NCBI GenBank assembly: GCA_905178155.1
Contig: CAJINV010000014.1
Location: 2,265,923 to 2,329,922 of the forward strand
DNA from: Amoebophrya sp. A120
Lineage: Eukaryota; Protista; Dinoflagellata
Direction of reading: 5' to 3'
Length of the DNA: 64,000 bases
In this document: in pieces, positions 9,301 through 56,906 of the stretch
Numbering within the stretch: position 1 is the first letter of the stretch
How the letters are laid out: each line of letters opens with the position of its first letter
Position numbers and translations under genes: made by a program
The notes under the pieces: model-generated
What the model saw: the letters and a program-made list of their open reading frames with translations, nothing else
Told to the model about the DNA's origin: nothing
The model's database searches: none

Positions 9301-12300
9301 GAAATTGCCTCGACGTCCTCGTCCAAATCCCGACCCACGCGGCCGTTTGGAGGAAGTGCCACGACTTTCCATTCCAAAGACCCGGTCTCGGTGTTGAAGA
9401 TCTTCCGCGCCAATAATTTTCCGTCTTTGTCGTACCAACTGACCGCGTTTCCATCAGCGTCCACATCAATTTCTTCCACTACTTTCGCGGCCGCGGATAG
9501 GAGCTCTTGATGCGTATAACTTTGGCGCCGATTTTTCGTGTTATTTTGACCACCGGGCGGGGAAAATTCGCTTCCGCGCTGCTTCGACGCCCTCGTTCCG
9601 CTTTTCCGCTTCTTATTTCGTCTTGGCGAGTTCGGGTGGGGTTTCCTGTAGTCGTATTTTCGTCCTCCGACTCCGAGTCCCCTTCTGTTGCTTCTGCGAG
9701 TTTTATTTGTCGCCGTTTTCTCAACCTGATCTTCATCTCCACCTTCAAGAACAGTCTCATCGCCGCCGTCTTTTCTCCCACATTCAGCTCCATTTGTGGC
9801 CGCAGAGCTTTTTGATGACTTTCCCGAGGACGACGAGGAAGAGGAAATCAGCATCTCGACCGGTTCGGTTTGCGCGTTCGCAAAATCGTGCATCAGCTCC
9901 CAGTATGCAATACAAAAGTATCGCACTCCTGGTGACGCTTTGCTTTTTCTTGCTAGGTGAAAGTGATAGTGAACGACACATGATACAATTTGCCATGCGA
10001 ATGCAGCTCAAAATAGAGAAATCTCTTATGCAGAAGTATTGCAATCAGTACGAGGAGTTGTGCGAGTGCGACATCATTTTCGCATAGGATACCCAGAGTG
10101 GCTTCTGGTTCAACTTCGCCACAAACTCCGCTTCATCTTCGCAGGAGCTGGAGGAGAGGTCAAGGTCAACACGAAGATCGTCTGTTTTTCTCGTGGTTCT
10201 TGTTCTAGCCCTTTTCCTTTTCTGTCCTTTGTCCGCAGTGTCGTTGTCAGCCGTGCTCCCTTTGCTGATCCGCACTTCTCCCGCTTGCGAATTACTCGCA
10301 GCAGCAAGACTCGCGCGGCCTGGGTCGTCTTGCGAAGGTTTTGCTCCACGCTCGGCAGCTAATCCAGTTTTGTTTTTGCCGGTGTCATCACGCTGCAGCT
10401 CAGCAGCATCGTCCTTCCCCCTATCCAGCTGTTTGAGCGCGTGACCCAAGCGAAACTCAATCGCGTTCATGGCCTCCTTTACTGTCGGGAATTGCTGCTC
10501 GTCTCTCGCGCGCGAGGAACGGTCATCGGGAGAAGAGACTAGCTGCAGATCTTGATCTAGATGATCTTCATCGTTTCTTCCAACTTCACGATCATCAGTT
10601 TGACCAGCAGAGTGGTCCTTTCGCATCCAAAACGGCGGCTCACGGTCCGACGGCTCCTCTTCCACGACGCACTCGCTTTTCTCGCCCTTCTGGTCGTCAA
10701 GCTGATAGACTTCTTCTTGTACTAGCCGAGGTCGGCTTTGCCCCTCTACCAGCCTTTGCCCCCGAACAGCCGACTTGCCACTTGTTGTTCGTGTTCCTGT
10801 CACTTCCAAATCCAGATGCAGTTCTTCCCCCGAAGACGTTGCTGAGCTGCTATCGTAGACCTCGTCCAGAGGTTGGTGGTGATCCTGGTGCTGGTTCACG
10901 ATGTCTGGGTGAAGTTTCTCCCCCTTCGAAGAGCGGCCCAAGACGAGACTGTGCGTGAAGGCCTCCAACGTAGACGGATTACTCGTGGGCGGGACTTTTT
11001 CATTTTCTCGCTTCGTAGTTTGACCATCCTTTACCGTTTCACTTTCTTCTAATATCAGCGCCGGTTGATGAGTATTTCGCTCTCGCTGATGTAGATGCTG
11101 TCCCACTTCAAAGTCAACGTCGTCGCTGCTAGAGGTCTCTGCTTGCGCGATCGGGCTGGTTCTTTTCGGAAACTGACCAAGGCCAGAGCCGGCGACAGGG
11201 GCGGGCGCTGTTTTGCCATCCTGTACCTGTTCCCCAGAAACGTCTGCTCTCTCCGGGAAGAAAAGCAGACTTAGAGAACTTGGAGGGCGGCGTGCAGCAG
11301 GACCTGCAGCCTTACCTGCTACATCACAGCTTCTTGCGAAGTCGAAGAAGTTCCTGTCCTTGTTGAACACAGCAGGTCCCTTCGCCCTACACTTGGTAGT
11401 ACTTTCCTCCAGCTTCCTGCGCCAGCTCCAGCTGTGCACCTTCGCGGCCGCGTCTACGGGAATCGCTGGTGGGACCGAAAGTTCTTCTGTGCCCATAGAA
11501 ATTCCGGTCCGCGTCCTCGGCTGCATTTGCCGACGTCCCTCTCGTCGTGCCGCTGCCTTTTCATCTTCGTGTGCTCTCTGCGCTTGCTGTGTTCCTTGCG
11601 CTTGGGCTTGCTTTCTCCACGAACCAAATCCGCTCGAGATAGTCTTTATTTTCGTTTTTGCTGTTGACGTCAGTCGGCTCTGGAAAAAACCTGCCTGCTG
11701 CAAGTTGCTCGAGCAGGATTTTTGGAAGTCATCTTGTTGCTCGTCCCTCTTCACTTGCAGGTCCACTGGCGAGGACCTGTGCGTTCCCTCCTTCAACGTT
11801 TTCGGCCCGGCGGGGGCGTTGGCTTTAGTAGATGTCGCCCCTCCAGCAGAGACGACCACTTTCGCCTTCGCCACAGAAACTCCGCCCGCCGTTGATTTCG
11901 CAGACAGCTTCGCTTGCACAGGTGCAGCTGCTCCCGGCGCAGCAGTAGACACTCCTAGAGAAACGCTCGCTTTCGGAGCAAACACTCCACCCCCGGCCGT
12001 GGATCTCGCAGATGGCAACTTCGATGCACCAGCTGCCCCGGAAACTCCCGAAGCACCCGACCGAGCGCTACTTGCGCCACTTCTCCCTGTGCCTAATCCG
12101 CTGGAAAACAAACTGGTCACTTTAAGCCCGATCTTCGGCACAATCGATGACGACTTCGCGCCGGCCTTTTTTCCGGAAGTTCCCTTCGACGGTTGTTTTC
12201 CCTTTGCGGATGTGTTTTTTCCAGAGAAAACACTTTTTGCTTTCGTCGGCGGTTTTGCTGCAGCTGCAAACTGGTTCGCAGGTCCTCTGGCGGGTGGTGG

Positions 12301-37681: not shown

Positions 37682-39485
37682 TCACCCCGCCGGCGTCGCG
37701 GTGGCCGCACTTGGTGCTTCGGGCATGATGTACTCCATGAGCCACTTTGGCGGAAAAGACTCGTACACCAGTCGCAAGAACCTCGTCAGCGTACCCGGGC
37801 CTGAATCGGGGAGCAACGGTTTCACGGGGTTTTCCAGCACAGGGTTGAGCCAGGTCGTTTTCTCACATAACGTCTCCGGGATCACGCTGAAAGATGTTCA
37901 CGTACACTTCTAAGGATGACAAACAGACTTTGAAGACAGACTTTGCCCTTCTCATGCATGGTCATGTTCATGCGCCATCATAACTGAACGATGAAGAAGA
38001 AGAACAAGCGAGGAAAAGTAAAAGCAGTGATGCGAATGTTTTACCCTCCCGACGCCTCTTCCACGTTTTCCAGCACGTAAGTCTTGGCTTCCTCCTCCGT
38101 CATCCCCCGCGACGCCACCAGACTGTCAATCGCGGCCTGCAGTTCCGGCTTGATTTCCTTCTTGTCGGTCCCGCTGACGCCGTTCAGCTGCTTGATAGTC
38201 ACCTCTATGGATGTGTCAGGATCGAAATCAACAAAATCGAAATAATTTGTGATGCATAAGATCGATACCAGTTGGAGCCTCAGTTTCCAAGTGGTGCATG
38301 ACAAATTTCGGGAGCACCAAAGTCCAGCCTGTCATGCTGTTTCGGCAAAGAAGACTGCTCCTGTCATGCTTCTCTGGAAGCGCATCGTCTTCCCTAAACA
38401 GGCTGGCAATCGGTCTCATTTGCCTGCTCCCCAATACAGGCCATATGTGCCCTACATTTTATGCATTACAAATTTTTCGACTCTGTCGATTTCGATCCTG
38501 ACACATCCATAACCTCCGCGTGGGAAATAAACTCCCCGTAGTCGTTCCCCACCGGCTGACAGGAATTCGCGCAGAACTCGTTTTATCAAATGTAAAAGTG
38601 TCTGGGTCTGAAAGATTGCGAGATTTGTCATGCTTGTCTAGGATGACCAAAAAGTTTGTGATGCGTGTCCAAGAAGAGACCCTTTTGCCTGTCATGCAAA
38701 AACGCAGTTTGTCATGCGAAAAACGCAACACAAAGAAGCGCAGATATTTCTCATGCTTGGCTGTGCATTACAGAGCATTTACAATTCCCAACGCAGCATT
38801 ACAAGTTTTCAGACCCAGACATTTTTACATTTGATACGTTTAACGTGATCTGCTTGGAAATGGGGAAGTTGATCCCCACCTGCAAGGCCAACGCCGGCTC
38901 GATGGTGCAGTACGGCCGTAGCGGGTCGGACACCTGGCAGCTCAGCGACTCCGCTTTGAACCGACACTCCATGCGCGTCTCGCCGTCAAAGGTCGGAATC
39001 GACTCACCGCGACAGCAATCGGCGCAGCGACAAAAGGGAAAAGAATTCAAGTCAACCGTTTCCATCAGGAAGGTTTTTGCCGCGACGTTTTGGATTGGTC
39101 GTGTGAGGAGTAATGGACTTAGAGAGGCGAGAAAACTACAAAAGGAGTAGGAGTAGCTTGATCGTGGATGTACAGCTCTTGTTTTCTGGTAGTTTTTATC
39201 CTGATGCTGATCTGATCGTCTCGCAAGACCCTGGGTTTTGCTCCGCACTCCTCGGACGTCTCCATTTTTGTGAAGCGTCGACTTCAGCAGGCGCCGATCG
39301 AAGCCGAAACTGCAAGAGGCACTGCAGGTCGCCGAGACATGCCGACGTGTTCTTCGCAACGCGCCTGCAGCTAGTACGCGTCCTCGTCTACTAATCGAGG
39401 TGCCTGCACATGTCGACGGCGAGCTCTTGGAGGACAACATGGTAACTATTGTTTTTGATGTTCGCTCAGTCCCTATCATGGTCAT
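37682..39485 (-). CDS. Cys-rich (CxCxxCC...FCxxxC) protein, probably secreted or membrane-targeted; 4 exons
   Basis: Reconstruction ...CRCADCC...QITLN|EFCANSCQPVG...HAEV|TIKQLNG...EASGG|VIPETLC. Two introners (38584, 38206) and a GT-AG intron at 37887-38044. Start and extreme 3' end uncertain. Confidence 0.75.
38206..38511. mobile_element. Introner-like element (306 bp), family C
   Basis: Perfect 24-bp TIR TATGGATGTGTCAGGATCGAAATC, perfect TSD ACCTC. Homologous to the reverse complement of 54510-54817. Confidence 0.93.
38584..38836. mobile_element. Introner-like element / non-canonical intron (253 bp), family B
   Basis: TIR TATCAAATGTAAAA(G/A)TGTCTGGGTCTGAAA, perfect TSD CGTTT. Homologous to the reverse complement of 52715-52962. 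Confidence 0.93.
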
Positions 39486-40078
39486 TTAGAAGGCCGTGGA
39501 TTCCGTGCAACAGCAAATTGGTTTGTCAAAGAAGCAGAATCTGATTCCTTTCCGGAACACGGAAAAGGAAACGACCCGCTAGAGCAAGTACCACAACATG
39601 CAACTAGAACTATCGCCATTTTGTGCCTGCCCATGAGTGGCAGAGTAGATGGTGCCAGAAACGTGTTCATTTCTCACTTAAATTCATGTGCTCTCGTCAC
39701 CTCGTCCTGCTCGTTCCTCTTCTTTACTTACTCTGTACTAGCATTCTTCTTTCTTACATCACTGCAGCCACGTTGCGCTGGCAATGGTAGCTCAAGAAAA
39801 CACATCATTCAACAGGTTCATTCTATATAGAGAAAGTGGTAGAGACAGTGGACAAGACCAGTGCTGCTCTGTTCGCTTTTCAATCTGCTCCTGCAACTAC
39901 AGCACGATACACAGCTTATTTCGTTCATCCGTGCGCACTGGCGCTACATCGTCCATGGAAAAGAAAACGCTTCTTTCTCCACCTTCTTTAAAAGGACACT
40001 TACATTACCAAGGTGCTTGGACTAGCACCCGTGCCCGCCTCAACATCTCCGTGAACTCGAAGTCTATTTCATCACGTC

Positions 40079-41202
40079 TCAACGCCGAAACCCAAACGCT
40101 TCCGCCGCGTACGTCACAGCATCGTTGTAGTCCGGTGCTTTCAGTCCCGTGTGCTGCAGTTCGTTAACCTCTTGCGCGTCCTCATTGTTGATGCACGTGG
40201 CCTGCGGGGTGGCTCCGCCGTTGCCGGGAGAAACTAAGAATGGAGGAAACGAGGTTATCATTTGAACATCAAAAGCTATGCACGTCACACGAACGCATCT
40301 TCGAATATGAGCAACATGAAGAGTTCATCAGTTTCTAGAAGACGAAAAGCAAGCTGAAGAAGCTTCTTGAACAAGCTAATCGAGCCGATGCTAGCAAAAA
40401 TCTTCGCTCGCAACGATTTCTAAGCATATACCACTGCCTCCCTCGATGTAGGCATTGTTCAACCGCGTCCGCTATCCTGAGTAAAAACGTCCCCACGCCA
40501 GAGTTGTAATGCAGATTTCGAAAGACAGGAAGACTTGTAATGCGCATACCCATGAGAGCCATTTCTACTCGTGTTTTGGAACTTGTGATGCTGTGAACAG
40601 GATGAGCAGATGAATCTGTGATGCGGCTGCACTTGCTAACCTGCACTACAGCACAGCAGAGCGCAACTTGTCATGCGTGACTCACAAAACTCCTAGGTTT
40701 GTGTTGCAAAATCCCCATCCTGACTCTGGCGTGGGTACGTTTTTACTCAGGATATCCGCTGCGCGTTCGACGTTCCGCCAGCGGCCGGCACGCTGCAGTA
40801 GCTGGCGCAGTACTGGTCGTAGTCCGTGGCCGTTGTGGTCGCCCAGGACCCCGCGCTCACTTCGGTGCAAGTGGCCTGTTGGCACTGACCGGTCGGCTCC
40901 CCGTCTTCGTTGTTCGCCTGGTCTAAAGTGGTCAAATTGATCCGGCGACAAGTCAACTTCCGGTGCACTTCGGTCACGATGCAGCACCCGCAACTGCACC
41001 CATCCTGCGCGATGTCGTAGATCTCATTGGCAAAAATGTTCCTCGTCTTCTGCAGTTTCTTCTGCGCTCTACTTGCCGCGCGGTGTAGGGAGAGGTGCTG
41101 CTGCAAATTGACAGCGGTCACAGCTACCGGGAAATGAGCAGCGAGGTGGGAAGATACCAGATGAACCAGAACCATCCGCCAGATGAGGCGAAAAGGAGAC
41201 AT
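40079..41202 (-). CDS. Secreted Cys-rich protein (CSCGCC...YCASYC), 3 exons
   Basis: Signal-peptide-like MSPFRLIWRMVLVHLVSSHLAAHFPVAVTA. Introner at 40473-40754 and GT-AG intron at 40234-40431. Junctions NAQR|TRLNNAYIEGGS|VSPGNGG are in frame. Confidence 0.78.
40473..40754. mobile_element. Introner-like element / non-canonical intron (282 bp)
   Basis: Near-perfect 32-bp TIR TATCCTGAGTAAAAACGT(C/A)CCCACGCCAGAGT, perfect TSD TCCGC, several internal TTGTNATGC. Confidence 0.93.
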
Positions 41203-42277
41203 GTTTCCCTCGCGACGGCGAAACCTTCCACCACCACAGGAGGTGGTGGAGAAGCGGAGACTATGTTCCTTCCACCTCCACCATAGATGGCGAGAGCGGT
41301 TCTGAGAACGCAATTACTTCATTTTTGTACACAAGGAGCACGACAACGTCAAGGACACGGACACGGCGAGAGTTCTAGAATTCGACAAGGACGACGGAGT
41401 AAGTACTTATTTGTGGAGGTGGTCTCGAACTCCAACACCAGCGAGCTCCAACAGAATGCAGAAGAAATCACTGACTCTCACTCGCTCTTCCAGGAAAGAA
41501 AGTGTAGTTGCTATGCCAATGCCCTCTCCCTCGAAGACCTATTGTCGCAACAGCGAAGCAAGGCAAGAGCAAGAACGCCGGGACGACAAACATAAAGACC
41601 CGAATTCATGAAGATTTAAAACAGCATGTCATGGTGCAGGAAGATTTAAACAGCATGTTGGTGTACGTAGTCAACGCTGCACCAGTGCCGCTGGCAAAAC
41701 AAAAATCTTGCTTTTCATCAAGATTTCTTCTTGGGTGTCTGTTGACTGCGCGATCGAATCCTTTTTACTTACTTCCAATCTCTTCTCTTCCACCGCCTCT
41801 TCTCCCTGGGGTAAGCGGACTATCGGAGCAAACAAATTCAAATTCCAGTACACAGGAATGCAGCACATGTGCCAGAATCGCAGCGCTCCGATTAAAAATC
41901 GTGTCCGAATTTTCCGTCAGATCCCATTTTTGTACAGTTCCTTTTTGTTCTTCCCGATCTAAATCATTGCTGTCACATATTCTACACTGGCGTGGAGACG
42001 CATCTTTTTGCTCTTTCATCGACCTCTTGTACTTCACACAATCGAATCACATATACTTTTTCCATAAATTCGTACGTCACACCATGGTCTCGGTCTGGCT
42101 CAAAAATCATACACGACAGGGACAGACTTTCAGGTTTCATACTGGATCTTACTTCGCAGAAATTTTCTGCAGATAACTGTAAGCAAGGGGACGCGACAAT
42201 GGTTTTGTACCCCGGCTAGCGGTCCCGGTCGCAGTGGATGAATTATCCCTTGAACTGGATGAATCCCAATCCATTGG

Positions 42278-45200
42278 TCATCCTGGCCCCCGCCCGACAA
42301 AGGACCCGAAAAAACTCAAATTGCCACTTGCACTTCTGCTAACGGGCGCTGCTGGTCCACTCCTCCCGACAGGATCTCGAGTCGGCGTGGAAGCTGCGGA
42401 GTAAGGTTGCGTGACGTCTGAGGCATCATCTTCTGTGGAGTTCGAGTTATGAACATCTGTCGTCGCGGTCGACTGCCTCCCGATCTGCTGTGCCGCAAGA
42501 ACAGAACTACTACCACAGGACGAAATGCTTCTCGCGCTCCGGGGGGTCGGGGTCGCGCTACTATCACAGCCGTGCAGTCTTTGCCACTCTTTCAAGTTAT
42601 TCCGCGCGGTTTTCCAAAATGCATGCGCAGGGCCGTCGAACAGTCCTTCGCCAGTCTGTTTCTTCGTCTTCAACACGTTCTGCTCAAACAGGTTCATCTC
42701 CCTCTTCAGCAGCGCCCTTGCACCAAATGCTTGCAGCGCACACGCAGCCTCAAATGCTCCGATCGCAATCGCGCGCACAAGAAGGCGGGGCTGCTGCTTC
42801 GCAGGTACTACGGATAGTTGCTGATATTGAGGTGTAGCTGCACCAAGGATTTGCTCTGTAGCGTTCCTAGCACCAGCCCCAGCACCGCCAAAGGAACCAG
42901 CCCGGCTTGCGGCTGACCGACGCTGTGATCGTCCAGACGAGCTGCCGACAGGAGACGGAGCCTCGGAAATAAACGAATCCATTCCCGTCCGTCCCCGCGG
43001 CGTATTACCAACGCCAATATCCTCGGCAGCTGCAGCTGCAGCTGTGTGGTCGGCCAAAATGCCGTGCCGATCAGCACTGTAGTCGATGACTGACGGCACT
43101 TGGCGCACCAGTTTCACAACCTGCTTGAAGTTATCGGCTGCGCTGTCGGGGGAAAAGCTGTGCGCACAACTGCGGTCCACTTGGGGGTCCAGATTCGCGA
43201 GATTGAGCAAGTGTCTAGCCATGTATTCCTTCGTCCCTTCGATCGCGTTTTTGATTTGCGCTTTGCGCTGCTCGATCAGCTCTCGGGCGAGAATACGCTC
43301 CGCTTCGACCGCATCGACAGCTCCTGCTGTGGACAGCTGCGACTGGCCGTGCTCTGTGCTGCGAGTACTAGAGTTACCAGTTGTGGCTGCCTCAACAGCT
43401 GTTGGTGCTGGCGTAGGTAGACTTGTACGCGCTTCCTCTGGGAGACCGGTCGCGAAAATCGCGACACCTTCACCAGAGGAGGAAGCGGCGCCGCTAGGAT
43501 ATTGATCACGGGCTGGCCGGTACTGATGTTGACCAACTGGTAGAGGTGCCAGGCTTAGAGATCCTGCTGATGGAAAAGCCGACTCGTCTGGGTCGGCCCT
43601 TTGATGTTGCGTTGTAGTTCTTTCTGTCATTGCACGACCGAGTTGCTGTGCAGAAGTAGTTGAGTTCCTCGAATCAAGTTGCTGATCAAAGTCAAGCGTA
43701 GACAACACCGCATCGAGTTTGTCTGCGCCCTCCAAATTCCACACATTTCTGAAGAGCAATTTGGTCTTCAGCTCCCGCACCCGTGCGTCTAGTCTGCCGT
43801 ATTTCGTCGCGCGGAGAGACCAGAGGAGGGAGCGGTCTGCTGCTGTTTCTTGGCCCGTTCCTCGTTGTGAAGAAGCAGAGACAAAGCTCTCATCCCAGGG
43901 AAAGTAACGCGCACTCAAATGGTGCTGATCTTCTCGAACGGGCAGGGAAGGCCACCCCACTTGTCCGTCCGGATCGATCGCGTCAGGTCCGCGCGGAAAG
44001 TAGGATAGCAGGTAGCCGAGTGGAGAGAAGGGAAAAAGCACTGGCTTCTCGAAAGAACGGTCCTGACGTTGCGCCGGATCTAGCCCGCGCAAAAGCCATC
44101 CTTGCTGCACTTCGGTTTCGCGCTCCTGCGACTTTTGCTTGTCAATGTGCGTTCGGACGCGCAGCAACGCGGGTTGCGTCTGCACCAACGTCCCGTCTGG
44201 CACGTCAAGCGGGGCCCAGAACTGCAAATTTTGAACCTCCGCGGTTTCACAGTGCAAAAGCGCACACTCAATCAATGGTAGCGGCTCCAAAGACCGTGCC
44301 TGGAGCTCTTGGAAGGTTCCCCTTCCGCTTGTTCCCCCGCTTGGTGATAATGTCGTGTCTGTGTCAAACCCTTCCACATAATCGTCGTGCACGGGCAGAG
44401 ATAACCTCGTCGCCCCCTGTCGTGGGTTGCTGGGAAAAGGATTCTTGTAACTCTCCCCTACTGCCTGGCAGAAAAGGCGTTTGCGGTAGGCAAGGTGGCG
44501 CTTTTGTTCCTCAAGCTCGAGGCTATCGTGTTCAAAAACAGCGTTTTTCGATCCACCTTTAGTCAGCGCTGCACCACGTGGACGTGAAGCCGGTGCGACG
44601 GACAATTCGCCGAGGCAAACTTGAAAAGCCAGCTTCTCCAGTTCGATGCGTCGTCTATATTGCGTGTCTAGACCCCGCTCGTCGGACAGCAAGATATCCA
44701 GATCCTCCTGCTCGAGCTTTTCCCGCAAAGTTTTCTTCCGCTCAGCCTCTCGCTGCGCTGCCTCCTCCGCTTCTTGCTGTTTTTGCAGGCGCTTCAATTC
44801 GGCTTGTTCCCGCTTTTTTCGGAGAAATGCCCATTTCGACGGGGGCGCAGCAGGAGAAGTTGCTGGGGCACTAGTAGCACCTCCCGACGAGGATGCCGAT
44901 TGAGATGACCCAGTTGCTCGGGCGCGAGCCCGTGAAGATGCCCACTTCGGCGCGGTAAAACTTCCATATTCTCTAGCGTTCCTGGCCGCTTCCCGCACTT
45001 TCTCCGGCTTCAGGAATTCTAGGCTCTCGTCGTGGTCCGTCCTTGGGCTTGCGCTTGGCAGCACAGTAGTTCCCTGCAGAGCAGTACTACCTCGCTCTCC
45101 CACAGCTCCGGTGTGTAGTTCTACGCTGGTCCTCTCCTCCTGATTCGTGCCAGTGGAAGTTGGCAATGGATTGCCTACGCCCAGGGACGTCCTCTCCACC

Positions 45201-47156
45201 GCTTCCCGAAGTGCATCAACTGTAGAAGAATTCTCGGTCAAAGAAGACGATGCCGCGCGACCACCTGGCCCTGGTGCCTCTTCTCCAGAAATAGCTCCAA
45301 CTACAGGAAGAGCTGCAGAAGACGAAGCGGAAGCAGACGGCAGCGGCCCATTGTTATCGGTGGAGGCTCGTGCAGGAACAAGGCCAGCTCCAGTTATAGA
45401 AGGAGAAATGGTGATCGCCGACAGTGATCATCTACCAAAGAAAAATCGCAGCACACCCTCGCGGAACGGGTTTGTTTTTTAACGGACCGAAAAAATGGCG
45501 CAGCTTTTCGCAGAGTGTGGCAGTGTTCACTGCGCACATTATGCGAGCAGTGCTGGAGATGGGAAAGGCCGACAATGGCCGGACGCTTCGGGGGCCCCAG
45601 GTGCTTAGTTTTCATGGTTGCTGGGCGCATGAAACCACTCTTCCCGTCTGGCCACGAGCGCCCACGCGTTTTGGTCGTCGAGCGCTCTTACCTCGGCCGG
45701 GGCGCGGCGCTTGAAGAGGGTCGGGGCCATAGCGTAGAGCCGGTTCGTTTGGACTGCCATCCCCCGCCTGGTTCGGGCCCGGCTCTGTGCCTCGACCTTG
45801 CCCGCCTGCCGCGAATGCGTCAAGGCATCGACGGGCCGGGGGCCCGGTTCACGCACTTAAATCCGATGACGGCTGGCTTTTGCGTGCCGCCAAGGGCAGC
45901 AAATACACGGAGCCGGCGGAGAAGCGGCTCCGATACGTAAGTACTAGCAACAAGCAACGGAGGCCATGCCGTCGGTTCTTAATTTGCACCGACGGCACGA
46001 CGCAGTTTGGTGAAGGGAAAGAACGCGGCGCGACTTTCGCGCCCCGGCTTCAACATGAAGACGGCGAGGCACCTTGCTGCACGGCCGCGGCAGCTCCTGC
46101 GGCGAGTCTCTCATAGTCGGCGCAGGCACGGACCGCGATAAACACTCGCTATGCCATCACGCAGGGCCCCGGCCTAGCGCCTGCCAAGAGAGAACAAAAG
46201 CAGCGCCGCCAAATATATATAAACTTCGCCCGGCGACGAAGCGCATGCCCCGCCCGGCGCAGCCGCGGAGCCGGCTCACCTGAGAAGGGCGCAGAACTCC
46301 CAAAGCAGCCACAGCGCTGCACCGCCTCGAGCCTGGCTGCCAGTTCCTGCACCGGCCTCGGGCCCCGAACTGTGAGCGGCTGCCCCACTTGTAATTTGCA
46401 GGCCCAGCCTGGAGCCAGGGCTTCCGGGCCTTCAAGGAACTGGCGCAGAGCATACTATAGCAAGGCGTTGCTTCTTCATCTTCTTCGACAACGTGCTGCA
46501 TTTCTCGCAAAGAAACGCGTTGTCGGAAATGAGTGTCGGAAGACGACAGAAAAACACTGATCTAAATGAGAGTCGAATCACTGATCATGAAGCAAAAAGA
46601 CCCTAGTTGAATGGTGATCATCAAATCAAAAAAATCGTTTGATGATCACCATTACCACGAGCTAACAAAGGTGATCATCAAATCAAAAAAGTCGTTTGAT
46701 ATTGGTGGAGGCTCGTGCAGGAGCAAGGCCAGCTCCAGTGCTAGTGCTCGCCCAGGTTGTACTTCTCCGACCTCCTGTGCCCGCGCCGGATCGCAAATCA
46801 AAATCGGTTTCCGCTGCAGGTGGAGACGCGTCCTGCAGTGCTAGTGAATGCGCGGCACTTCCACTGGCAACATCAGGTCGAAACGGTGAAGATGACCCGA
46901 GCGCGGAAGCACGTCTTGCACCACCAGTAGATGACTGCCCAGGAGTTCCGAACAGACTCTGGAAAGTAATTTTTGGCGAGGTTCTCGAGCTTGGAGCTGC
47001 GTTCCGTTCGTTTCCTCGGTCTGCGGCTAGGACGAACAGTCCAAGCGGGGCGCTGTGCTCGTCTGTCACGCCAAAGCTTGCAAAAATGCTGCAAATCTGA
47101 CGGACACACAACACAACCCACACGCAAGATCCAAATCTTACACGCGAGAAAACCAT
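42278..47156 (-). CDS. Large uncharacterised protein (~1180-1190 aa) interrupted by a 1.3-kb insertion
   Basis: The 987-aa ORF has no ATG before an upstream stop but stays open past 45394. ORF 47156-46683 ends in the same peptide (TGAGLxPARAST). Removing the insert joins them in frame. Confidence 0.7.
45395..46701. mobile_element. 1307-bp GC-rich insertion flanked by a 38-bp direct repeat
   Basis: 45357-45394 and 46702-46739 match at 36/38. The insert starts TAT and ends ATA but lacks a proper TIR. It has a subterminal 16-bp hairpin at 46610-46653 and a duplicated 31-mer at 46613 and 46670. Confidence 0.75.
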
Positions 47157-47540
47157 TCTGATTTCTTTTTTTGCGAACTATGTAGATATTATGATGTGCC
47201 TGATTTATTCGATCAGAAACCTTTCATTCGGTGTCGTTTCACTTTCACCAGGCTGCGGAAAAAAAAAGCCTGTCTTCACAAACATTAACTTAGTACACTT
47301 GCAATTCTACTACAACTACATCGCTCAAGGATAATAATCACAATACGAATACCCTTCAAAAGTACCCGCGATTTTTTTTTGTACACTCTACTTCTTGAAA
47401 CAGTTGGCAATATAATAATCGTAGTAATATTTGAAGCTGGAGATGCATTTGGATCGGGATCGGGAATGAAATTGAAAAGAAAAAGCGGATCGTAGAAAAA
47501 ATAAAATAATTAACTACTTCAAAGTAAAACACAAAAACTA

Positions 47541-47595
47541 CTCCAACAAAAATAAGGTCAGCATTACAGTAATGCTGACCTTATTTTTGTTGGAG
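47541..47595. repeat. Perfect palindrome, 27-bp arms, 1-nt loop
   Basis: CTCCAACAAAAATAAGGTCAGCATTAC-A-GTAATGCTGACCTTATTTTTGTTGGAG. Confidence 0.95.
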
Positions 47596-47655
47596 AAGAT
47601 CATACATGCAAGCAATGCTAGTAATTTACTAGCATTGCTTGCATGTATGATCTTC
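47595..47655. repeat. Perfect palindrome, 30-bp arms, 1-nt loop
   Basis: GAAGATCATACATGCAAGCAATGCTAGTAA-T-TTACTAGCATTGCTTGCATGTATGATCTTC. Confidence 0.95.
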
Positions 47656-48175
47656 ATCATCTGATATATCGAACGAACTGTGTACTTACCATCCACAGCC
47701 TCTCTTCCTCTTGCAGAGCTTTGCATTGTTTCACGCGTGGGATCCAACTAGTGACTGAAATAGCGCCACGCAAATTTACAATAAGGCTTTCCGTGGCATC
47801 CCTACGTGAAGAACAGTCAGTGAGCGTAAGCATGATCAATTTCCTGGCGCAATTGAAACAGGCGTCGACTTTTGCTTTTCTAATGTTTGCATAATTTTAT
47901 AGTTGAGTCGTGTCACCAGAATTTTGATTTTCAAACTGCTCATAGATGTTTTTTGATACACTTGCGCAAAAGGTCTTGGTGGGTGCTAGCGAATGACTCC
48001 GGTGCTATAACTTTGCTTGGTGCTACTGCGTGGTCTGCGTATTTTTCAACTCTTCAATTCAGTGAAAGCATTGTAGTACTAGGAGCCTCCAGCTACAAGA
48101 GTTTATTCGGAAGTTTTGTCTTGCGAGGAGAATCATCATGCTCGTTCTTCTATCTTCTTGTTCTTCTTCACTTTC

Positions 48176-50383
48176 TCACAGCGCATTTTCGTCGCTGGAA
48201 TCCTCGTCCTCGGTTCCAGATAGGTCGTCGTCGTCCGAATCTTCCTCCTCGTCCTCACTGTCACTGTTTTTACTGCTGCGCTTCTTCAAGCTGTTTTTAC
48301 TACTTCGCTTCGAGGTCCTCTTCGAATTTCGGGAGGTTTTGGTGTCGTCTTTTGTAGTTGTACCATCTCCTGCAGCTGCTGAACCAGACCCACCAAAAGC
48401 ATTGTCGCCTTGTCCCGACGGCGCTCCCCTCGGTGAAGCAGAACTACCGTCAGCACTTTTCTGGACGGACGTTGTGCCGATATCCGTCATGGAAATCCCT
48501 TGGTCCATCGTCATATCGAACTCTTCGGCGTCGCCTTCCGCATCTTGGTTCCCGATCAAGTTTCCCCGCTGTTGCAGCATCAACACCGAGCGGCCCGCTT
48601 TCCTTGTTTCGGACGGAAGGATGATTTTGTCCAGGAAAGAAAGTAAAGCTCCGAGCTGTTCGGTGTCGACGGTGGTTCTAGTCGCACCAGCTGCACCAGC
48701 AGCGGACAAGACTGATGCTTGTTGTTGCGTCCGACCAGCACGATCTTCTGCCACCTGCGGTGGCACTGGCATCGTCCGCGGCCCTACATCTGGCACCTTC
48801 AGGAACTGTGGCTCCTCCGCAGAAGGTTGTTCATCCCCCGGCGCACCGGTTGCCTGCGTTTTATTTTCCTCAAATTTCTTCCCACTTTGTTCTTTCACGC
48901 CGACGAGCAGCAACTTGAGCGAGCTGACGTGATTCTGTATCATCTTCAGATTTCCCACTTTCGCTAACTCCACAATGTCCTCTCGTACCTCCGCCAGCCG
49001 GTCTTGCAGTTCCGGGGCGTATAGATCCTTTTCGAAGGGGTACCTTTTCTTTTTCGTGGTGTTTTCATTTTCATCAACTCCGGGTCCTGCAGTAGATGAA
49101 GTATTTCCTTCTTTCGCTTCCTTCAGCGTTGTCACCACGTGCTGTAATTCCGAAAAGCGCTCCAAAAACTCCTCCACGTTCAAGTAGTGCAAATCTCGCT
49201 GCAGCCTGCGCAGAGCCACGTCCGTTTCGTCCATGAATTCCGATGCGTACTGTTCGGCGCTCCTCCCACGGAGCCGCAACCCGATTTTTCTCGACAAGTA
49301 AGCGCTCGCCCTGTTTAGCGCGGAGGAGTCGTCCAGTTGCTGAATCTGCTCGTCTTTTTGATTCTTCAACAAATAACTCTTCCGGGTTTCGTCCGCCTTT
49401 TTCTGCTGTTGAATAAACTTCTGGTCGATCACCTGCTTCAGAGACTGCTTCACGGTTTGTCGGGTAGATGGATCAACTACAGCTTGTGCATCGTCCAAAG
49501 TAGCTTCCTCTTCACCTGCATTACCCTCCTCCTGCTTCTCTGCGGCTGAGTCCCTCGTTGCGCCGGCAGGACCCTTGTTCTTCTTTCGTCCCGATGCAGT
49601 AGTTGTGGTAGTTTTCACGTGATCTAGAAGTCTCCTCAGTTCGTTCCTCGTCATGCGGCGATTCTTCAGCAATTCCAAGTCTTCCGCAGACGCCCCCTGG
49701 TCTCCCAGCATTTCCACTTGAGACAATCTACCATCGTCATCGAGAGGCGCGCCGGACCGTTCCGCGGCACTCATCCTCGCAGTTTTATTAACATTCCTCT
49801 TCGCCGCCGCTGCACTACTAGCCGCCGCTGCATTCTTTGCGAAGTTGGCATTCACGACCGAGGAAAACCTTAATCCCGTGATGGTAGAACCACCGGCGGC
49901 GGCACTTGAAGACCTCTCAGATGTTTTTGAAATGTTCGCCCTCATAAATTGCTCCTTTTTCTCGCGAATCTTTTCGTTCGCCAGGTTTATGAATTTCAGT
50001 TTTCTTTCCTCCCGGATTTTCGTCTGTTTCTTCAATCCGGATTCCAACGCAGTTTTGATCTTCTGTTTGTGGGAATCGGTGAAGCGAGTGTCGTTTTCCA
50101 AAATTTTCTCGAACTCGTGCGCGTTCTGCTCCTTTAGTGCGAGGGCAACTTGCTCCAACTTCGAGAACGTGAGGGAAGATGATGTTGTGGATGTCTCAGC
50201 ATCATCATTATCAGCTGCGCTTGCCGATTTCGCTTTCTTGTTTGTTTTTTTCTGAAGAGCCGCTGCGGCTGCTGCAGCCTCACTTGCGGTCTTTGCGGAC
50301 GCTTTATCAACCTCTTCGAGAACTTCGAAGATCTCGCCGGTGGTCAGCTTCTGCAGAATAATTTGCGTGATGTCGGTCTTCAT
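48176..50383 (-). CDS. Uncharacterised coiled-coil-rich protein with acidic C-terminus (735 aa)
   Basis: Long uninterrupted ATG-to-stop ORF with K/E/A-rich helical segments; no domain recognised. Confidence 0.8.
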   Translation of the reverse strand: MKTDITQIILQKLTTGEIFEVLEEVDKASAKTASEAAAAAAALQKKTNKKAKSASAADNDDAETSTTSSSLTFSKLEQVALALKEQNAHEFEKILENDTRFTDSHKQKIKTALESGLKKQTKIREERKLKFINLANEKIREKKEQFMRANISKTSERSSSAAAGGSTITGLRFSSVVNANFAKNAAAASSAAAAKRNVNKTARMSAAERSGAPLDDDGRLSQVEMLGDQGASAEDLELLKNRRMTRNELRRLLDHVKTTTTTASGRKKNKGPAGATRDSAAEKQEEGNAGEEEATLDDAQAVVDPSTRQTVKQSLKQVIDQKFIQQQKKADETRKSYLLKNQKDEQIQQLDDSSALNRASAYLSRKIGLRLRGRSAEQYASEFMDETDVALRRLQRDLHYLNVEEFLERFSELQHVVTTLKEAKEGNTSSTAGPGVDENENTTKKKRYPFEKDLYAPELQDRLAEVREDIVELAKVGNLKMIQNHVSSLKLLLVGVKEQSGKKFEENKTQATGAPGDEQPSAEEPQFLKVPDVGPRTMPVPPQVAEDRAGRTQQQASVLSAAGAAGATRTTVDTEQLGALLSFLDKIILPSETRKAGRSVLMLQQRGNLIGNQDAEGDAEEFDMTMDQGISMTDIGTTSVQKSADGSSASPRGAPSGQGDNAFGGSGSAAAGDGTTTKDDTKTSRNSKRTSKRSSKNSLKKRSSKNSDSEDEEEDSDDDDLSGTEDEDSSDENAL

Positions 50384-51842: not shown

Positions 51843-54800
51843 TCACGCCCCCATCACCAGCTGCGCTTTCGGGAAGATCCTCTCCACAAATCCCGCGTCC
51901 GCCTTCGACAGTTTCGAGTTTTTTTCGTCGTTGGACTTCAGCAACTTCTTCTGCAACTCCGCGTCACCGCTGGCCGCTGACAGCACCTGCGCGCAAAACC
52001 TGGCGACGTTGGACACCGAGTAGCAAATCGCGTTCGAGGAGCCAGGCGGGTTGGTCAGGCACGTGTGGTTAATGAGACCGTCCGGGGGGCAGGAGACTAC
52101 CGGGAACTTCGAGTGGAACGAAGCGGTTCCCGACAACGCGTCCGTACCTCCAGCGCAACCAACAATGATACAGGGCTGCTCCGAACGATTGTAGCTGAGA
52201 GAGGTTTTATTGCAGATGTTAAATGCTATCATGGAGTTCAACTTCATCTTGTAAAATAAAAATTGTATAGGCGAAATGCGTAGTGTCTACGTACATACTC
52301 TAGAACTAGAAAATTCAAACACGCAACACAACAAAACGAAGCACGGACTGAGTGAATAACATGAACATTTTCAGAAGGTGGAGCAGCTGCCGCTGCATAG
52401 AAGGCATTCATACATACTCATACTACCTTTTCAAAGCATCTTCCAACTTGCCCGGCTGTTTGTGCGCCGAGCAAATCCGGGTGTGCACCGCCTTGAGGCC
52501 CTGCTTCTTGCAGCTCTCCTCGATTTTCGCCAAATGGGGCGCGTCGGAATCCGATCCCGCCATGATCAGCACGACGCCGGTGCTCAACAGCTTCGCCGCC
52601 TGGAGGTTCTTGATGACCCGCTTGGCCGACGCGTTGCTGCTGCCGGTGATACTGGATGCGAACAAATCAAAGGGGAACTCCTTCCCAATGATCGTTTCGT
52701 AGACCTTGATGTACTATCAAATGCAAATATGTCTGACTTGTGATGCAAGTCAGTGAACAATAAGTGAACTGTCATGCGCAGCCAAGCATGACAAGTTTTT
52801 TCGTGCTTCTGTGATGCGCATTCCGCATGAGAAAGTGCGTTTTTGCATGACAGGCGAGAGAGGCTGTTCGTGGCCAGCACGCAATACAGAGTGCAGAGTC
52901 ATGCCAGACTAGCATGACAAAACCTTGCAATCTTCCAGACCCAGACATATCTGCAGTTGATATGTACCGGTAGCTGCACTCCACGATCTGGGCCGGGGAC
53001 AAACTGATTTCTATGACAGTGCACAACTCCCCCTCCCCGTCATTTGTCATGCAAAATACCAAATCCAGACTGTGTTTCTTAGCACTGTTTGCATGACAAA
53101 CTCCGGAAGCCCAAACAGCACTACACTCCTGTGGAAATAATTTGTCATGGAAAACCGGCATTCTTACTGACCCTTGTATTGCTTTTGCTGTTCATGCTAT
53201 ACAAATGAGGGGAAGGAGGAGTTGTGCACTGTCATAATTTCGTCCGCGGATTCATTCCCCGTGAACCCCATGTCGAGCAGGCAGTCGCGCACGTACTGTT
53301 TGCTGTATTCTTTGATTTTGTACTTGCTGAAAATCTCACTCGCCGGCATGGTCTTTCCCTTCACCGCTTCGTCGATCAATTTCCATTTCTTCTCGTACTC
53401 TTCAATGCCGCATATGCAACGGAAATTTCAATTTATTCATTCCGTGCACGTACTAATGCTATTTCATCCGCAACATGGCACCACTTTTATCTTTTTCGTA
53501 TGCAGCATACGAAAAAGATAAAAGTGGCATCGCATGCTTTAGGTTCGGAAAATTTGCATCTGCCGTGCATTTGTACGTGTGGGGTGAAATAAAATTGAAA
53601 TTTCTATTGCATACCGCACATCCGAGAGCTATCCGGCGTGTTCACTTCGTCAATCACATACAATTCGTTTGTCTCGTAGTCCAAACCGAATTCGTACTTC
53701 GTGTCGATCAGAATCAGCCCCTTTTCTTTCATCTTCTCGGATCTATCCTGTGCAAAAGTATCGTACTCGTACTAATTGCCATTATGCATGACAAATCTTG
53801 TCCTTAAGGTAAAACAGCATGACAAATTCCAGCTCTCACGCTGAGCAAATTTGTAATGCAATTTATACTAGTACGATACTTTTGCAACGCATAGGATCCG
53901 CGCTGGAACAATTTCATCGAGATGTCCTTCACTTTTGCGGCCAAATCCACTCCGATCAATTGTTCCACCTCGGCCATGGTCATGTTCTCGTCGTGCCCCA
54001 CCTCCGCCTTCGTGGTCGGCGTGAAGATCGGCTCGGCGAGTTTCTGGTAGCGGACCAGCCCGTCTGGAATCTTCAACCCGCAGAAGTCCCGATCCCCCTT
54101 CTCGTACGCCTTCGCCATGGAACCCCAGAGATAGCCGCGGACGATGCACTCCACCATCAGATTCTTCATTTTCTTCTGCACGACGACCGCCGGGTCGGGG
54201 GCGGGGGTGATGAGCGCGTTGGGGATGATGTCCTTGGTCGCGTCGAACGCCCATTCGGAGATCTTGTTCAACACGAACCCCTTAAAGGGGATCAAATTGG
54301 GCAGCACGTGGTCGATATCCTGTGCAAAAGTATCGTACTAGTATAAATTGCATGACAAATTCTGGCAAGAAGGAAAGTCAAATTTGTAATGCTGTTTTGC
54401 CCTAGGAAAAATATTTGTCATGCATATCTGCAATTAGTACGAGTACGATACTTTTGCACAGGATAGTCGAACGCAGAAACCCGGTCGTTGGTCACCATCA
54501 CCACGCTCTTATGGGGGTGTCAGGATTGAAATCGTCAAAAAATGGTTTGTCATGCACAAAATGCAATACAAAAAGTGACTCTATTGCAGAGGACGCACGG
54601 GAGGCAGATTATAGTCCTGGTAAGGGTCTTTCAAAAGTTGGACGGCTGACTAGCATGACAGAAGGTAGCTCTTTTGCCCTAAACTGCGTGACAGACTCGC
54701 TTCCAGGACCGGGAAAATTTGCCATGCACCGACTACAAACTGTGGGTCTAACTGGTATCCGTTTGATGCATGGCAAATCATTTCAACTTTGACGATTTCA

Positions 54801-56906
54801 AACCTGACACGTCCATAGTTCTCGTTCTGGAAGTAGATGTCCCGCACCTTTCCCTTCTTCGCCTCGCCCCACTCCGGGATAAACACCGCGTCCACTTCCG
54901 TTTTGTTCAGAAATTCGCTGTGGATCTTTTGCTTGTAGAGGGTTTCTTTATCCTTGATAGTACCATCGCCGTCTTTGTCGCTCGTCGTTTCCTTCGAGGT
55001 CGCGGCGGTGGAGGTGAAAAAATCGTTGTCCACCGCTTTCGTGCACGACACAGAGGGTTTCACATCCGAAACAGCAGTACTGCCCGTGGCGAACACCGGA
55101 CACAGGCGCGCATCCGCGTCTTCCAAGGACTTCACCTTTTTCGCGTTTTCGCTGCTCAAAAACTCCCCGATCTTCGGCTCCTTGCCGGAGAACATCTGCA
55201 GGCAAAACCGCGCGCAGTTTCCCGGCTTGCCGCAGAAGGCGTTGCTGCTGCCCGGCGGGTTGATCGTGCAGGTTTTGTTTTCCAGCCCGTCCGGGGGACA
55301 GGACACCACCGGCCAGATGGACAGGAAGGACGCGGTTCCGGACAAGGCGTCGGTACCGCCGGCACAGGCGATGATGCAGATCATCTGGTCGGTATCCAGG
55401 AAAAAACACCCATCGCCATCCCCATCCATGTTTTGCATGACAAACACTGGAGCTGATGCATGTTTTGCATGACAAATTGGATGGGGACGATGTGTTTCTG
55501 TTTTTTTTTTTTTGTGGATAGTCGGAGGTATTGTAGTACTTCAACACCTCGCCGAGCTTCTTCGGCTGCTTGTGCGCGGAACAAATCCGCACCTGCGTGG
55601 AGATGTTGTGCTTCGCGAACGATTTCGCGAACTCCTTCTGCAGTTTCTCGATGTGCGGCGCGTCCGAGTCGGACCCGGCAAAGATGCAGGCGAGGCCAGA
55701 CGAGAGGTACTTTTTCGCGACCAAATTCTGCAACAGCCGCTCCTTGGGCGACTTGTTGATCACCTGCGCCTTGTCCGGTAACGGGAACTTCTTGCCCGTG
55801 ATCTGCTCGCAGACGTCGATGTAGCGCTTCGCGCACTCCAGCACCTGCTCCGGCGTCAATTCGATCGCCTTGGTGGCGGTGGTAGGGTCGAATCCCATTT
55901 CCAACAGCGTGTCCCGGACGTACTGCTTCGAGAACTCCTTCACCTTCAACTTCGGATGTTCCTTCAGCAAGGCGGACACAGAGGGGTAGTCCTTGATCTT
56001 CGGTTCGATCAGCTTCCACTTCTCCTCGTACTCCGCAATGCTGCACAGACGGCTGCTGTCCGGCGTGTTCACTTCGTCGATCACGTGCAGCTTGCCGGTC
56101 TTGGGGCAAATCCCAAACTCGTACTTCGTGTCGATCAAAATCAGCCCCTGCTTCGCCATCGTCTCCTGGCCGCGCTTGAACAGCTTCATCGAGATGTCTT
56201 TGACCTGATGTAGTTTTTGCGCCATGTACTTCTAACAGCGACTTCTTGTTGATGCAGTTGTAGGTAGGACCACGTAGTCAGAGCCGACTTGTTATTTCTT
56301 TTTCGAAATTCCTAAACTCCTGCTTTATCATTTTACATCGTAGGATGACAAAATCTTGAGCATCGTGTGCTCCGTAGTTCCTACCTGCGCCGCCAAATCC
56401 TTCCCGATCAGCTCCTCCACTTCCGCCATGGTCATGTTCTCGTCGTGCCCCACCTCCGCCTTCGTGGTCGGCGTGAAGATCGGCTCGGCTAATTTCTGAT
56501 ACCGCACCAGCCCGTCCGGGATTTTCAACCCGCAGAAGTCCCGATCCCCCTTCTCGTACGCAGCCGCCATGGAACCCCAGAGATAGCCACGGACGATGCA
56601 CTCCACCATCAGATTTTTCATCTTCTTCTGCACGACGACCGCCGGGTCGGGCGAGGGGAGAACGAGGGCGTTGGGGATGATGTCCTTGGTCACCTCGAAC
56701 ATGTGCTCGGAAATGGTGTTCAGCACCTGGCCCTTGAACGGGATCAGATTCGGAAGGACAAAATCGAACGCGGACACACGGTCGTTGGTAACCATGACAA
56801 CGTCATCCTCCTGGAAATAAATGTCGCGGACCTTGCCTTTCTTCGGAAAACCCCACTCTGGCAACACCACGGCGTCGAGGCCGTAGTTTAGGAAAGACGC
56901 ATCCAT
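51843..56906 (-). CDS. PAICS: Tandemly duplicated SAICAR synthetase / AIR carboxylase fusion (PurC-PurE-PurC-PurE, ~1068 aa), 10 exons
   Basis: PurC motifs [66 protein letters not shown] and PurE motifs GSDSD, SAHK, PVVSCPP each occur twice. Exons approx. 56906-56385, 56204-55521, 55387-54818, 54504-54466, 54310-53894, 53738-53614, 53407-53237, 53006-52963, 52709-52427, 52194-51843 sum to 3207 nt. Two GT-AG introns (56205-56384, 52195-52426) and seven introners. Confidence 0.95.
52715..52962. mobile_element. Introner-like element / non-canonical intron (248 bp), family B
   Basis: TIR TATCAA(A/C)TGCA(A/G)ATATGTCTG, perfect TSD TGTAC. Junction CSYRY|IKVYET. Confidence 0.93.
53012..53236. mobile_element. 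Introner-like element / non-canonical intron (225 bp)
   Basis: TIR TATGACAGTGCACAACTCC with further similarity inwards, perfect TSD ATTTC. Junction SADEI|SLSPAQ. Confidence 0.93.
53413..53613. mobile_element. Introner-like element / non-canonical intron (201 bp)
   Basis: TIR TATGCAA(CG/TA)GAAATTTCAATTT, perfect TSD CCGCA. Junction DSSRMCG|IEEYE. Confidence 0.93.
53744..53893. mobile_element. Introner-like element / non-canonical intron (150 bp), family D
   Basis: TIR core TGCAAAAGTATCGTACT, perfect TSD GGATC. Junction FQRGS|[10 protein letters not shown]. Reverse-complement homolog of 54316-54465. Confidence 0.94.
54316..54465. mobile_element. Introner-like element / non-canonical intron (150 bp), family D
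   Basis: Perfect 24-bp TIR TATCCTGTGCAAAAGTATCGTACT, perfect TSD GTCGA. Junction VSAFD|HVLPNLIPF. Confidence 0.95.
54510..54817. mobile_element. Introner-like element / non-canonical intron (308 bp), family C
   Basis: About 30-bp TIR TATGG(GG/AC)GTGTCAGG(A/T)TTGAAATCGTCAAA, TSD GCTCT/GTTCT (4/5). Junction YFQNEN|VVMVTNDR. Confidence 0.92.
55393..55520. mobile_element. Introner-like element / non-canonical intron (128 bp), family A
   Basis: TATCCA...TGGATA ends, perfect TSD GTCGG. Junction YYNTSD|[11 protein letters not shown]. Confidence 0.93.

Follow-up and report, generated by a model that had tools for sequence, protein, structure and literature searches.

A 1.3-kb repeat-family insert between copies of a 38-bp coding duplication in Amoebophrya sp. 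A120 appears to be removed in the manner of an introner, leaving an 11-residue tandem repeat

The window, by which we mean the whole analysed stretch of 64,000 nucleotides, carries on its minus strand a gene with two coding exons, one of 151 codons starting at 47156 and one of 1036 codons ending at 42278. With the codon divided between them, the exons account for all 1188 amino acids (151+1+1036) of P0001, an annotated protein of Amoebophrya sp. A120. The terminal part of the first exon is the upstream copy of a 38-bp repeat, and the other copy lies on the far side of a long insert (Table 1). Protein homology searches with P0001 returned only P0001 itself, and no Pfam family was found in it. 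Upstream of the gene, at 47538-47655, there are two adjoining near-perfect palindromes with arms of 30 nt and 43 nt, which in Rfam gave sub-threshold miRNA matches only; a similar palindrome is present at 53481-53527, inside an introner.

Table 1. Features of the insert locus and one control introner (window coordinates)
Feature	Position	Strand	Basis or remark
Second coding exon, 2 nt + 1036 codons + stop	42278..45390	-	ORF; P0001 match; X3 and X4 contigs
Target 6-mer just before the left copy	45351..45356	+	5/6 match to the last 6 nt of the insert (46696-46701); candidate microhomology
Left (gene-downstream) copy of the 38-bp duplication	45357..45394		the 4 nt adjoining the insert are intronic
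Non-canonical intron, 1312 nt, AT..TG in gene sense (1 nt + insert + 4 nt)	45391..46702	-	X3 joint; P0001
Non-coding repeat-family element, 1307 bp, TAT..ATA, without matched TIR	45395..46701		further copies in X1, X2, X3, X4, X8 and L001
Left end, TATAG terminus and two TGATC motifs	45395..45432	+	probable family terminus
Right-end module: five TGATC, 57-bp tandem unit, 16-bp perfect hairpin (46610-46653)	46546..46701		ends TTTGATA; looks locus-specific
Right (gene-upstream) copy of the 38-bp coding duplication	46702..46739		repeat comparison
First coding exon, 151 codons + 1 nt	46703..47156	-	ORF; N-terminus of annotated P0001; X3 contigs up to 47202
Control introner, imperfect 5-bp TSD	54510..54817	-	annotated protein permits only cuts at +4 or +5

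Direct-repeat comparison reproduced the coordinates and the identity given in an earlier note on this DNA. The two 38-mers are identical at 36 of 38 positions, differing at 45358/46703 and 45378/46723, and the chance of such a repeat arising anywhere in 64 kb is about 7e-10 (about 1 in 10^9 windows). The insert between them is 1307 bp long with a GC content of 0.58, starts with TAT and ends with ATA. The two removals that had been proposed, of the insert plus 38 nt and of the insert plus 5 nt, were both computed to keep the reading frame. BLAST lengthens the duplication by 6 nt leftward to 41/44, because the six bases before the left copy match the last six of the insert at five positions. The duplication may thus be 39 bp long, and the final A of the ATA would then be target-derived. 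Judging by the duplication in the DNA alone, the 38-mer was probably present once in the ancestral gene. When paralogs and introner copies are excluded, no other long, closely spaced direct repeats flanking a TAY..RTA stretch were found in the 64-kb window.

Contigs of X1 and X2, which belong to one sample that is possibly the source of the assembly, were read as DNA from their even depth over introns and spacers, their kind not being on record. Unbroken single-copy contigs of both cover 40730-45423 and 46671-47370, and X2 also covers 46546-47509. Both insert junctions are crossed at single-copy depth, the left one by contigs that enter the insert by 29 nt, under the 31-letter bar, and the right one by contigs that enter it by 31 nt (X1) and by 156 nt (X2, with three differing letters). 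A mis-assembly was rejected on the basis of these junction contigs. No empty allele was found in X8, where the element is represented by a single 205-nt piece, besides which there are two chance matches of 18-19 nt. At positions 46592 and 46649 the letter of the window is absent from every X1 and X2 contig, and the assembly or bubble removal may differ there. In an X2 contig the hairpin pair 46614/46649 is swapped from G-C to C-G, a compensatory change.

One X3 contig (depth 5.6) joins 45390 directly to 46703 and skips 1312 nt, that is, the insert and five further nucleotides; the joint has 77 letters on its short side and no ambiguous letters. X3, the contigs of which cover the gene up to 47202 and nothing of 47225-48300, is taken to be RNA by guess. 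Of all the cuts tried, the only one that reproduces P0001 removes five flanking nucleotides in total, with four of them after the 3' end of the insert (-1/+4). The joint, as probable RNA, and the annotated protein thus agree on the outcome that the earlier note had put forward as one of two, removal of the insert plus five with an 11-residue tandem repeat kept, although the annotation and X3 may share reads and are therefore not independent support. In P0001 the repeat reads TGAGLAPARASTRAGLVPARAST. The earlier note had also reckoned with the case that no transcript links the exon at 47156 to the downstream ORF; the X3 contig links them. An unspliced message would meet a stop after 157 codons. 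The 15 of 157 joints listed for X1, X2 and X4 bear neither way on replication of the 45390-46703 joint or on its absence from DNA; the X4 pieces listed stop at 45264 and resume at 46980. Three raw RNA runs (X9-X11) placed no reads here.

Several other accounts of the joint were rejected. Removal of the insert plus 38 nt agrees with neither the X3 contig nor P0001. Excision at the DNA level is at odds with the DNA-like contigs, which are continuous across both splice points (45390 and 46703), with the reservation that rare forms are lost from contigs. A pre-existing 33-nt repeat combined with a normal 5-bp target-site duplication (TSD) would need three changes in the 5-mers, the downstream one of which is moreover an exact continuation of the duplication. 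A rule that G always closes the intron was too weak to use: all ten oriented TSDs contain a G, but its position varies.

The repeat-bearing segment of P0001 is of low complexity, with 62% of its residues being S, T, A, G or P. Since the host protein is without a homolog and the repeat falls in such a segment, a large functional effect of the 11 extra residues is unlikely.

Other elements in the window served as controls. Of 19 further TAT..ATA candidates two (46216-47503 and 54425-56501) were set aside, being long pairings by chance that overlap other features. The remaining 17 are 126-321 bp long, and their 5-bp target duplications are perfect in 15 and match at 4/5 in two. The insert is longer than any of these and richer in GC (0.58 vs 0.35-0.50). 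Its lack of a matched terminal inverted repeat (TIR), claimed from the letters, holds up in the anchored end-to-end comparison, where it scores 22 against 27-66 in 17/17 controls. Unrelated ends do as well (up to 23 and 29), whereas shuffled sequences mostly score lower, 26/1000 of them reaching 22. The ends are complementary at 7 of the first 10 and 8 of the first 20 positions. The predicted end-pairing duplex is -9.3 kcal/mol, vs -22 to -53 for 16 of the 17 neighbours and -9.7 for the last (55393-55520). Folding the whole intron gave a predicted subterminal helix with a 7-nt offset and pair probabilities of 0.4-0.7, so that some pairing is possible. As for the introner end motif of TAT, seven nucleotides and an A run, both ends of the insert start with TAT; the left one has AAA at 12-14, and the right one is without an A run.

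The neighbouring gene at about 51846-56900 on the minus strand encodes P0002, likewise labelled Amoebophrya sp. A120, a protein of 1068 aa with two tandem SAICAR synthetase domains and an annotated AIR carboxylase domain; an A25 protein of 1093 aa carries the same SAICAR synthetase/AIR carboxylase annotation. The gene holds seven introners, six of them in its second half, and all seven must be removed as element plus five to yield the annotated protein. They include the introner at 55393-55520, one end of which has decayed to a T run and which is still removed as element plus five. Four introners (4107-4232, 4284-4547, 9904-10091 and 53744-53893) have two ends that differ from each other at positions 4-10, and some ends equal those of other elements: the right end of 4284 is that of 38584, and the right end of 4107 equals the left end of 55393 over 20 nt. 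An exchange of ends between introner families may be common. Three introners in 38206-40754 reach summed contig depths of 10^4-10^5 in X1 and X2; in contigs of these two the end of one introner family is followed by the start of another at a distance of a few dozen bases, evidence of very dense introner insertion elsewhere in the genome.

At the insert, the cut totals five nucleotides where there is neither a terminal stem nor a matching repeat, the border 5-mers of the 1312-nt intron agreeing at only 2/5 positions. This points to a ruler set by the sequences of the ends, and not by pairing of a hairpin or of the repeats. The exact cut (-1/+4) can be read because the flanks differ here; at ordinary introners it is hidden by identical 5-bp repeats. 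Splicing without a stem is not unique to the insert, since a neighbouring introner whose ends pair just as weakly is removed normally.

As far as the contigs tell, the insert represents a single repeat family that does not code for protein and has both near-identical and older copies. This reading follows from the depth of its interior contigs (2-4.5 times single copy), from their variant indels and from the copies in L001, a metagenome contig that is 98.9% identical to the insert over 45395-46462. L001 carries a second copy, 87.5% identical to the insert and head to head with the first, the two standing around a short centre (L001:1-2119), which could be a nested inverted insertion or an element with long TIRs. 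Its arms are 84-86% alike inside and 100% alike over the outer 170 bp, toward the 46462 side; a fold-back amplification artefact was rejected, as the arms differ by about 13%. A coding element was also rejected: a Pfam scan of four ORFs in the insert gave no family at the cut-off, and five of nine internal indels between the window and the diverged L001 arm are not multiples of three. Rfam gave 12 matches at E up to 1, none of them at the gathering score. Pattern scans found the right end of the insert nowhere in metagenome contigs and the left end once, and gave no hits in viral contigs or prokaryote genomes. The family is contiguous over 45395-46462 in L001 and over 45418-46575 in an X3 contig, which speaks against reading the hybrid proposed in the earlier note as one of two unrelated introners; the note's alternative of a different, larger element fits the multi-copy 1.3-kb family seen in the X contigs and L001. 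Copies of the family in RNA-like contigs are deeper than the host gene. The right-end module at 46546-46700 has an X3 depth of about 50-66, vs 5 for the host gene, and occurs in other contexts including a palindromic one; it could be a hairpin RNA present in abundance, or else a repeat in its own right. The family may already be classified in figures S19-S25 of PMC7789003 or in Dataset S2 of PMC12130899.

The two ends of the insert are not alike. The motif TGATC occurs seven times: two copies lie in the leftmost 35 nt and five in the rightmost 145 nt, and the intervening 1.1 kb has none. On the left, the similarity to L001 and to an X4 contig ends exactly at 45395. L001 has a G before TATAG, and the X1 and X2 contigs both end at 45423, which, with 31-mers, implies a further genomic context with a T before TATAG. 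The TATAG end therefore looks like a probable recurrent family boundary. The right terminus reads GTCGTTTGATA. The X1 contig starts at 46671 and that of X2 is unbroken over 46546-47509, from which it seems that the last 31 nt do not recur at another locus beside a different flank, and an X3 contig runs on past TTTGAT as a palindrome instead of ending there. Judged from these contig boundaries only, the family end is probably intact on the left and probably not on the right. A second complete copy bearing both of its flanks was not encountered. The suspicion that the TAT and ATA ends are coincidental is thus probably wrong for the TAT, a recurrent boundary, and may well be right for the ATA, which looks locus-specific.

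We favour, with a probability of about 0.45, a one-ended insertion that was completed by microhomology repair. The transposase that moves the TAT..ATA introners of this genome would have linked the TATAG end to one strand of the target at 45394/45395, and the freed 3' end of the target would have copied on leftward over 38-39 bases. The other end of the element, broken in a terminal hairpin unit after TTTGAT, would then have annealed at a 5/6 match that lies 39-44 nt away, immediately in front of the duplication, and the 38-39-base segment would have been doubled by fill-in. The repaired junction by chance would read as a normal introner end (TATCAAA in gene sense), and through this resemblance the splicing machinery would cut at its usual offsets. 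The allele would have survived because 38-5 = 33 is a multiple of three; the reading frame is a survival filter and no clue to the mechanism. We infer these enzymatic steps behind the observed structure and spliced outcome.

The recurrent TATAG boundary, the locus-specific right end and the microhomology are consistent with this one-ended insertion. A match of 5/6 to the target is equalled at 714 of 63900 window positions (about 1% by chance) and at 20 of 2900 in the gene; the best among the 34 control junctions is 3/6, and the left insert junction scores 0. The match was found post hoc and on one of two sides, which raises the chance to about 2%. Furthermore, TATCAAA is a common normal introner start here (5/34 ends), which would fit a natural right end, and no transposase was found by Pfam in the four insert ORFs. 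For the A120 strain, the accessible text of PMC12130899 reports introner families that are integrase-like and others that are unclassified, making an IS3/IS481-like mover plausible as a candidate only. A precedent exists in aberrant retroviral integrations, which, as far as the available part of PMC5041404 describes them, have one normal end, one often truncated end that host enzymes join, and an enlarged target duplication on the aberrant side. Those duplications often measure hundreds to thousands of bp, and the present case differs in being a natural, non-coding protist element that was rescued as an intron. The possibility of a long-stagger or repair event, raised in the earlier note, is upheld as a class of origin.

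If L001 is a single element with long TIRs, the right end would be natural and TATAG an internal break, and the stop of similarity at 45395 in L001 and X4 would be equally expected. The insert would then be half of a long inverted-repeat (Foldback-like) element with natural termini of the 46701 type and with TATAG as a broken, repair-joined end, which is still a one-ended event with the ends swapped. The head-to-head arms of L001, perfectly alike over their outer 170 bp, fit this, as do the indels of the diverged arm, which recur in X1, X2 and X8, and a right end that starts TATC like 18/34 control ends, vs none of 34 starting TATA. We nevertheless consider it very unlikely: TGATC stands directly behind TATAG and likewise at the opposite end, the points where contigs stop imply that more than one context precedes TATAG, no contig shows the right terminus with other flanks, and the left junction is without microhomology.

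A transposition with a long stagger would have used natural, asymmetric ends and cut the target strands 38 bp apart, that is, five plus three helical turns. In the accessible text of PMC10045372, the termini of IS481EU elements are TNT..AYA, a pattern that covers TAT..ATA, and their TSDs, even those of a single family, measure about 4, 15 and 25 bp; IS1202 elements have TSDs of 5-6, 15-17 and 24-29 bp. Thirty-eight would extend a series of 5, 16 and 27, and removal of element plus five would hide the middle classes in exons, since 16 and 27 shift the frame and 38 does not. The TGATC motifs and a weak subterminal match at both insert ends also agree with it. Against it, the available portion of PMC10045372 gives no class near 38 bp, and its wide ranges fit many lengths; the IS481EU families have TIRs and are reported there from parabasalids only; no TAY..RTA stretch with a genuine flank of 14-37 bp occurs in the window; and the microhomology and the locus-specific right end are left unexplained. 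We rate a long stagger as rather unlikely. We regard as less likely again the more general proposition that the introner enzyme cuts in helical-turn steps (5, 16, 27 and 38 bp) and that splicing always removes element plus five, measured from the TAT/ATA ends, with no need for paired TIRs or for direct repeats that match.

As to the wider likeness with these transposons, IS481EU, IS1202 and IS3EU/GingerRoot share TA..TA or TNT..AYA termini and have, within what is accessible of PMC10045372, long TSD classes one helical turn apart; the TNT..AYA match of the insert to IS481EU is weak, being only 3+3 letters. Unlike IS481EU and IS1202 the insert has no TIR and no transposase match in the four ORFs scanned, and no 38-bp class is reported for them in that part of the source. 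The IS3EU/GingerRoot termini fit too, but their TSD is 6 bp, vs 38 at the insert and 5 in its 17 neighbours; the normal neighbours thus have a TSD of 5 bp and not the 6 or 4 of the transposons in PMC10045372.

Alternatively, the insert may be a hybrid of two events 33 bp apart, in which either the ends of sister copies took part (P-element type), with insertion beside the donor site, or alleles with related elements 33 bp apart recombined, leaving a duplication of 33+5 bp. The geometry fits exactly, and several window introners are mismatched at end positions 4-10 and match the ends of other elements. Alternative transposition giving flanking duplications is documented in the accessible text of PMC3744419, where P-element hybrid insertion and Ac reversed-ends transposition likewise leave an element with direct duplications of the neighbouring DNA on its two sides; in those products the termini stay intact, and for Ac the duplications span 8 kb to 5.3 Mb, unlike the 38 bp and the probably truncated end seen here. 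The two mismatches in 38 are slightly above expectation for an element that has diverged by 0.2-0.7% from related copies (P about 0.01-0.10), as two alleles might give, but unremarkable at 1.5% divergence (P 0.32); they do not separate the origins (P 0.01-0.32 by age). Under a hybrid origin both ends should be natural and intact and microhomology should be absent; either two insertions or an empty target would have been required within 33 bp, and any crossover is confined to the last 125 bp because the interior is one family to at least 46575. We judge it unlikely, to much the same degree as a long stagger.

Target-primed reverse transcription is the least probable origin, and by a long way improbable. 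TATAG would be the fixed 3' end, the other side 5'-truncated at the microhomology, and the TSD 38-39 bp. This gives the same geometry, LINEs (Dualen, R9) can leave long and variable TSDs according to the accessible part of PMC9977147, and the depth of the family copies in RNA-like contigs would agree. The insert has neither a poly-A nor a simple-repeat tail, the four ORFs scanned have no reverse transcriptase match and Rfam gave nothing at the gathering score, and the TAT terminus with motifs at both ends points to a DNA element.

The known introners of A120 are described in the available text of PMC7789003 as starting with TAT and having inverted repeats of 8-20 nt and direct repeats of 3-5 nt. 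The insert shares with them the organism label, the TAT start, non-canonical boundaries, membership of a repeated family and the removal of five flanking nucleotides. It differs in having no terminal inverted repeat of 8-20 nt, in boundary 5-mers that agree at 2/5 positions, in a duplication of 38 bp vs 3-8, and in that its splicing does not restore the original protein; with 1312 nt the intron also exceeds the 1-kb clustering limit of that study. It behaves like an A120 introner but fails two defining features, the terminal inverted repeat and the short matching direct repeat, and we do not count it as a regular member. Introner-like elements of dinoflagellates, in the accessible text of 10.1101/2020.10.14.339549, likewise recruit splice sites at fixed places within or beside the TSD, using several registers, but they have GT/GC/GA..AG sites and TSDs of 4-8 nt, and no long retained duplication is reported in that text. 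Among the papers listed in searches of the accessible, mostly open-access literature, judged by title or abstract, and in PMC11282704 and 10.1101/2020.10.14.339549, we found no described case of an introner leaving a retained in-frame duplication.

According to the accessible part of PMC7789003, the non-canonical introns that Amoebophrya splices out number in the tens of thousands, and U1 is apparently not involved. The present locus is a natural test of whether introner splicing measures from the ends of the element. It is also one example of an introner-type insertion that lengthens a protein, the transposon-derived intron adding 11 residues instead of staying silent; both points, on the splicing ruler and on protein lengthening, concern one locus only. 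If the stagger were quantised, exons would keep their frame only with the 5- and 38-bp classes, and introner insertion would be a systematic maker of 11-residue tandem repeats in a fast-evolving proteome.
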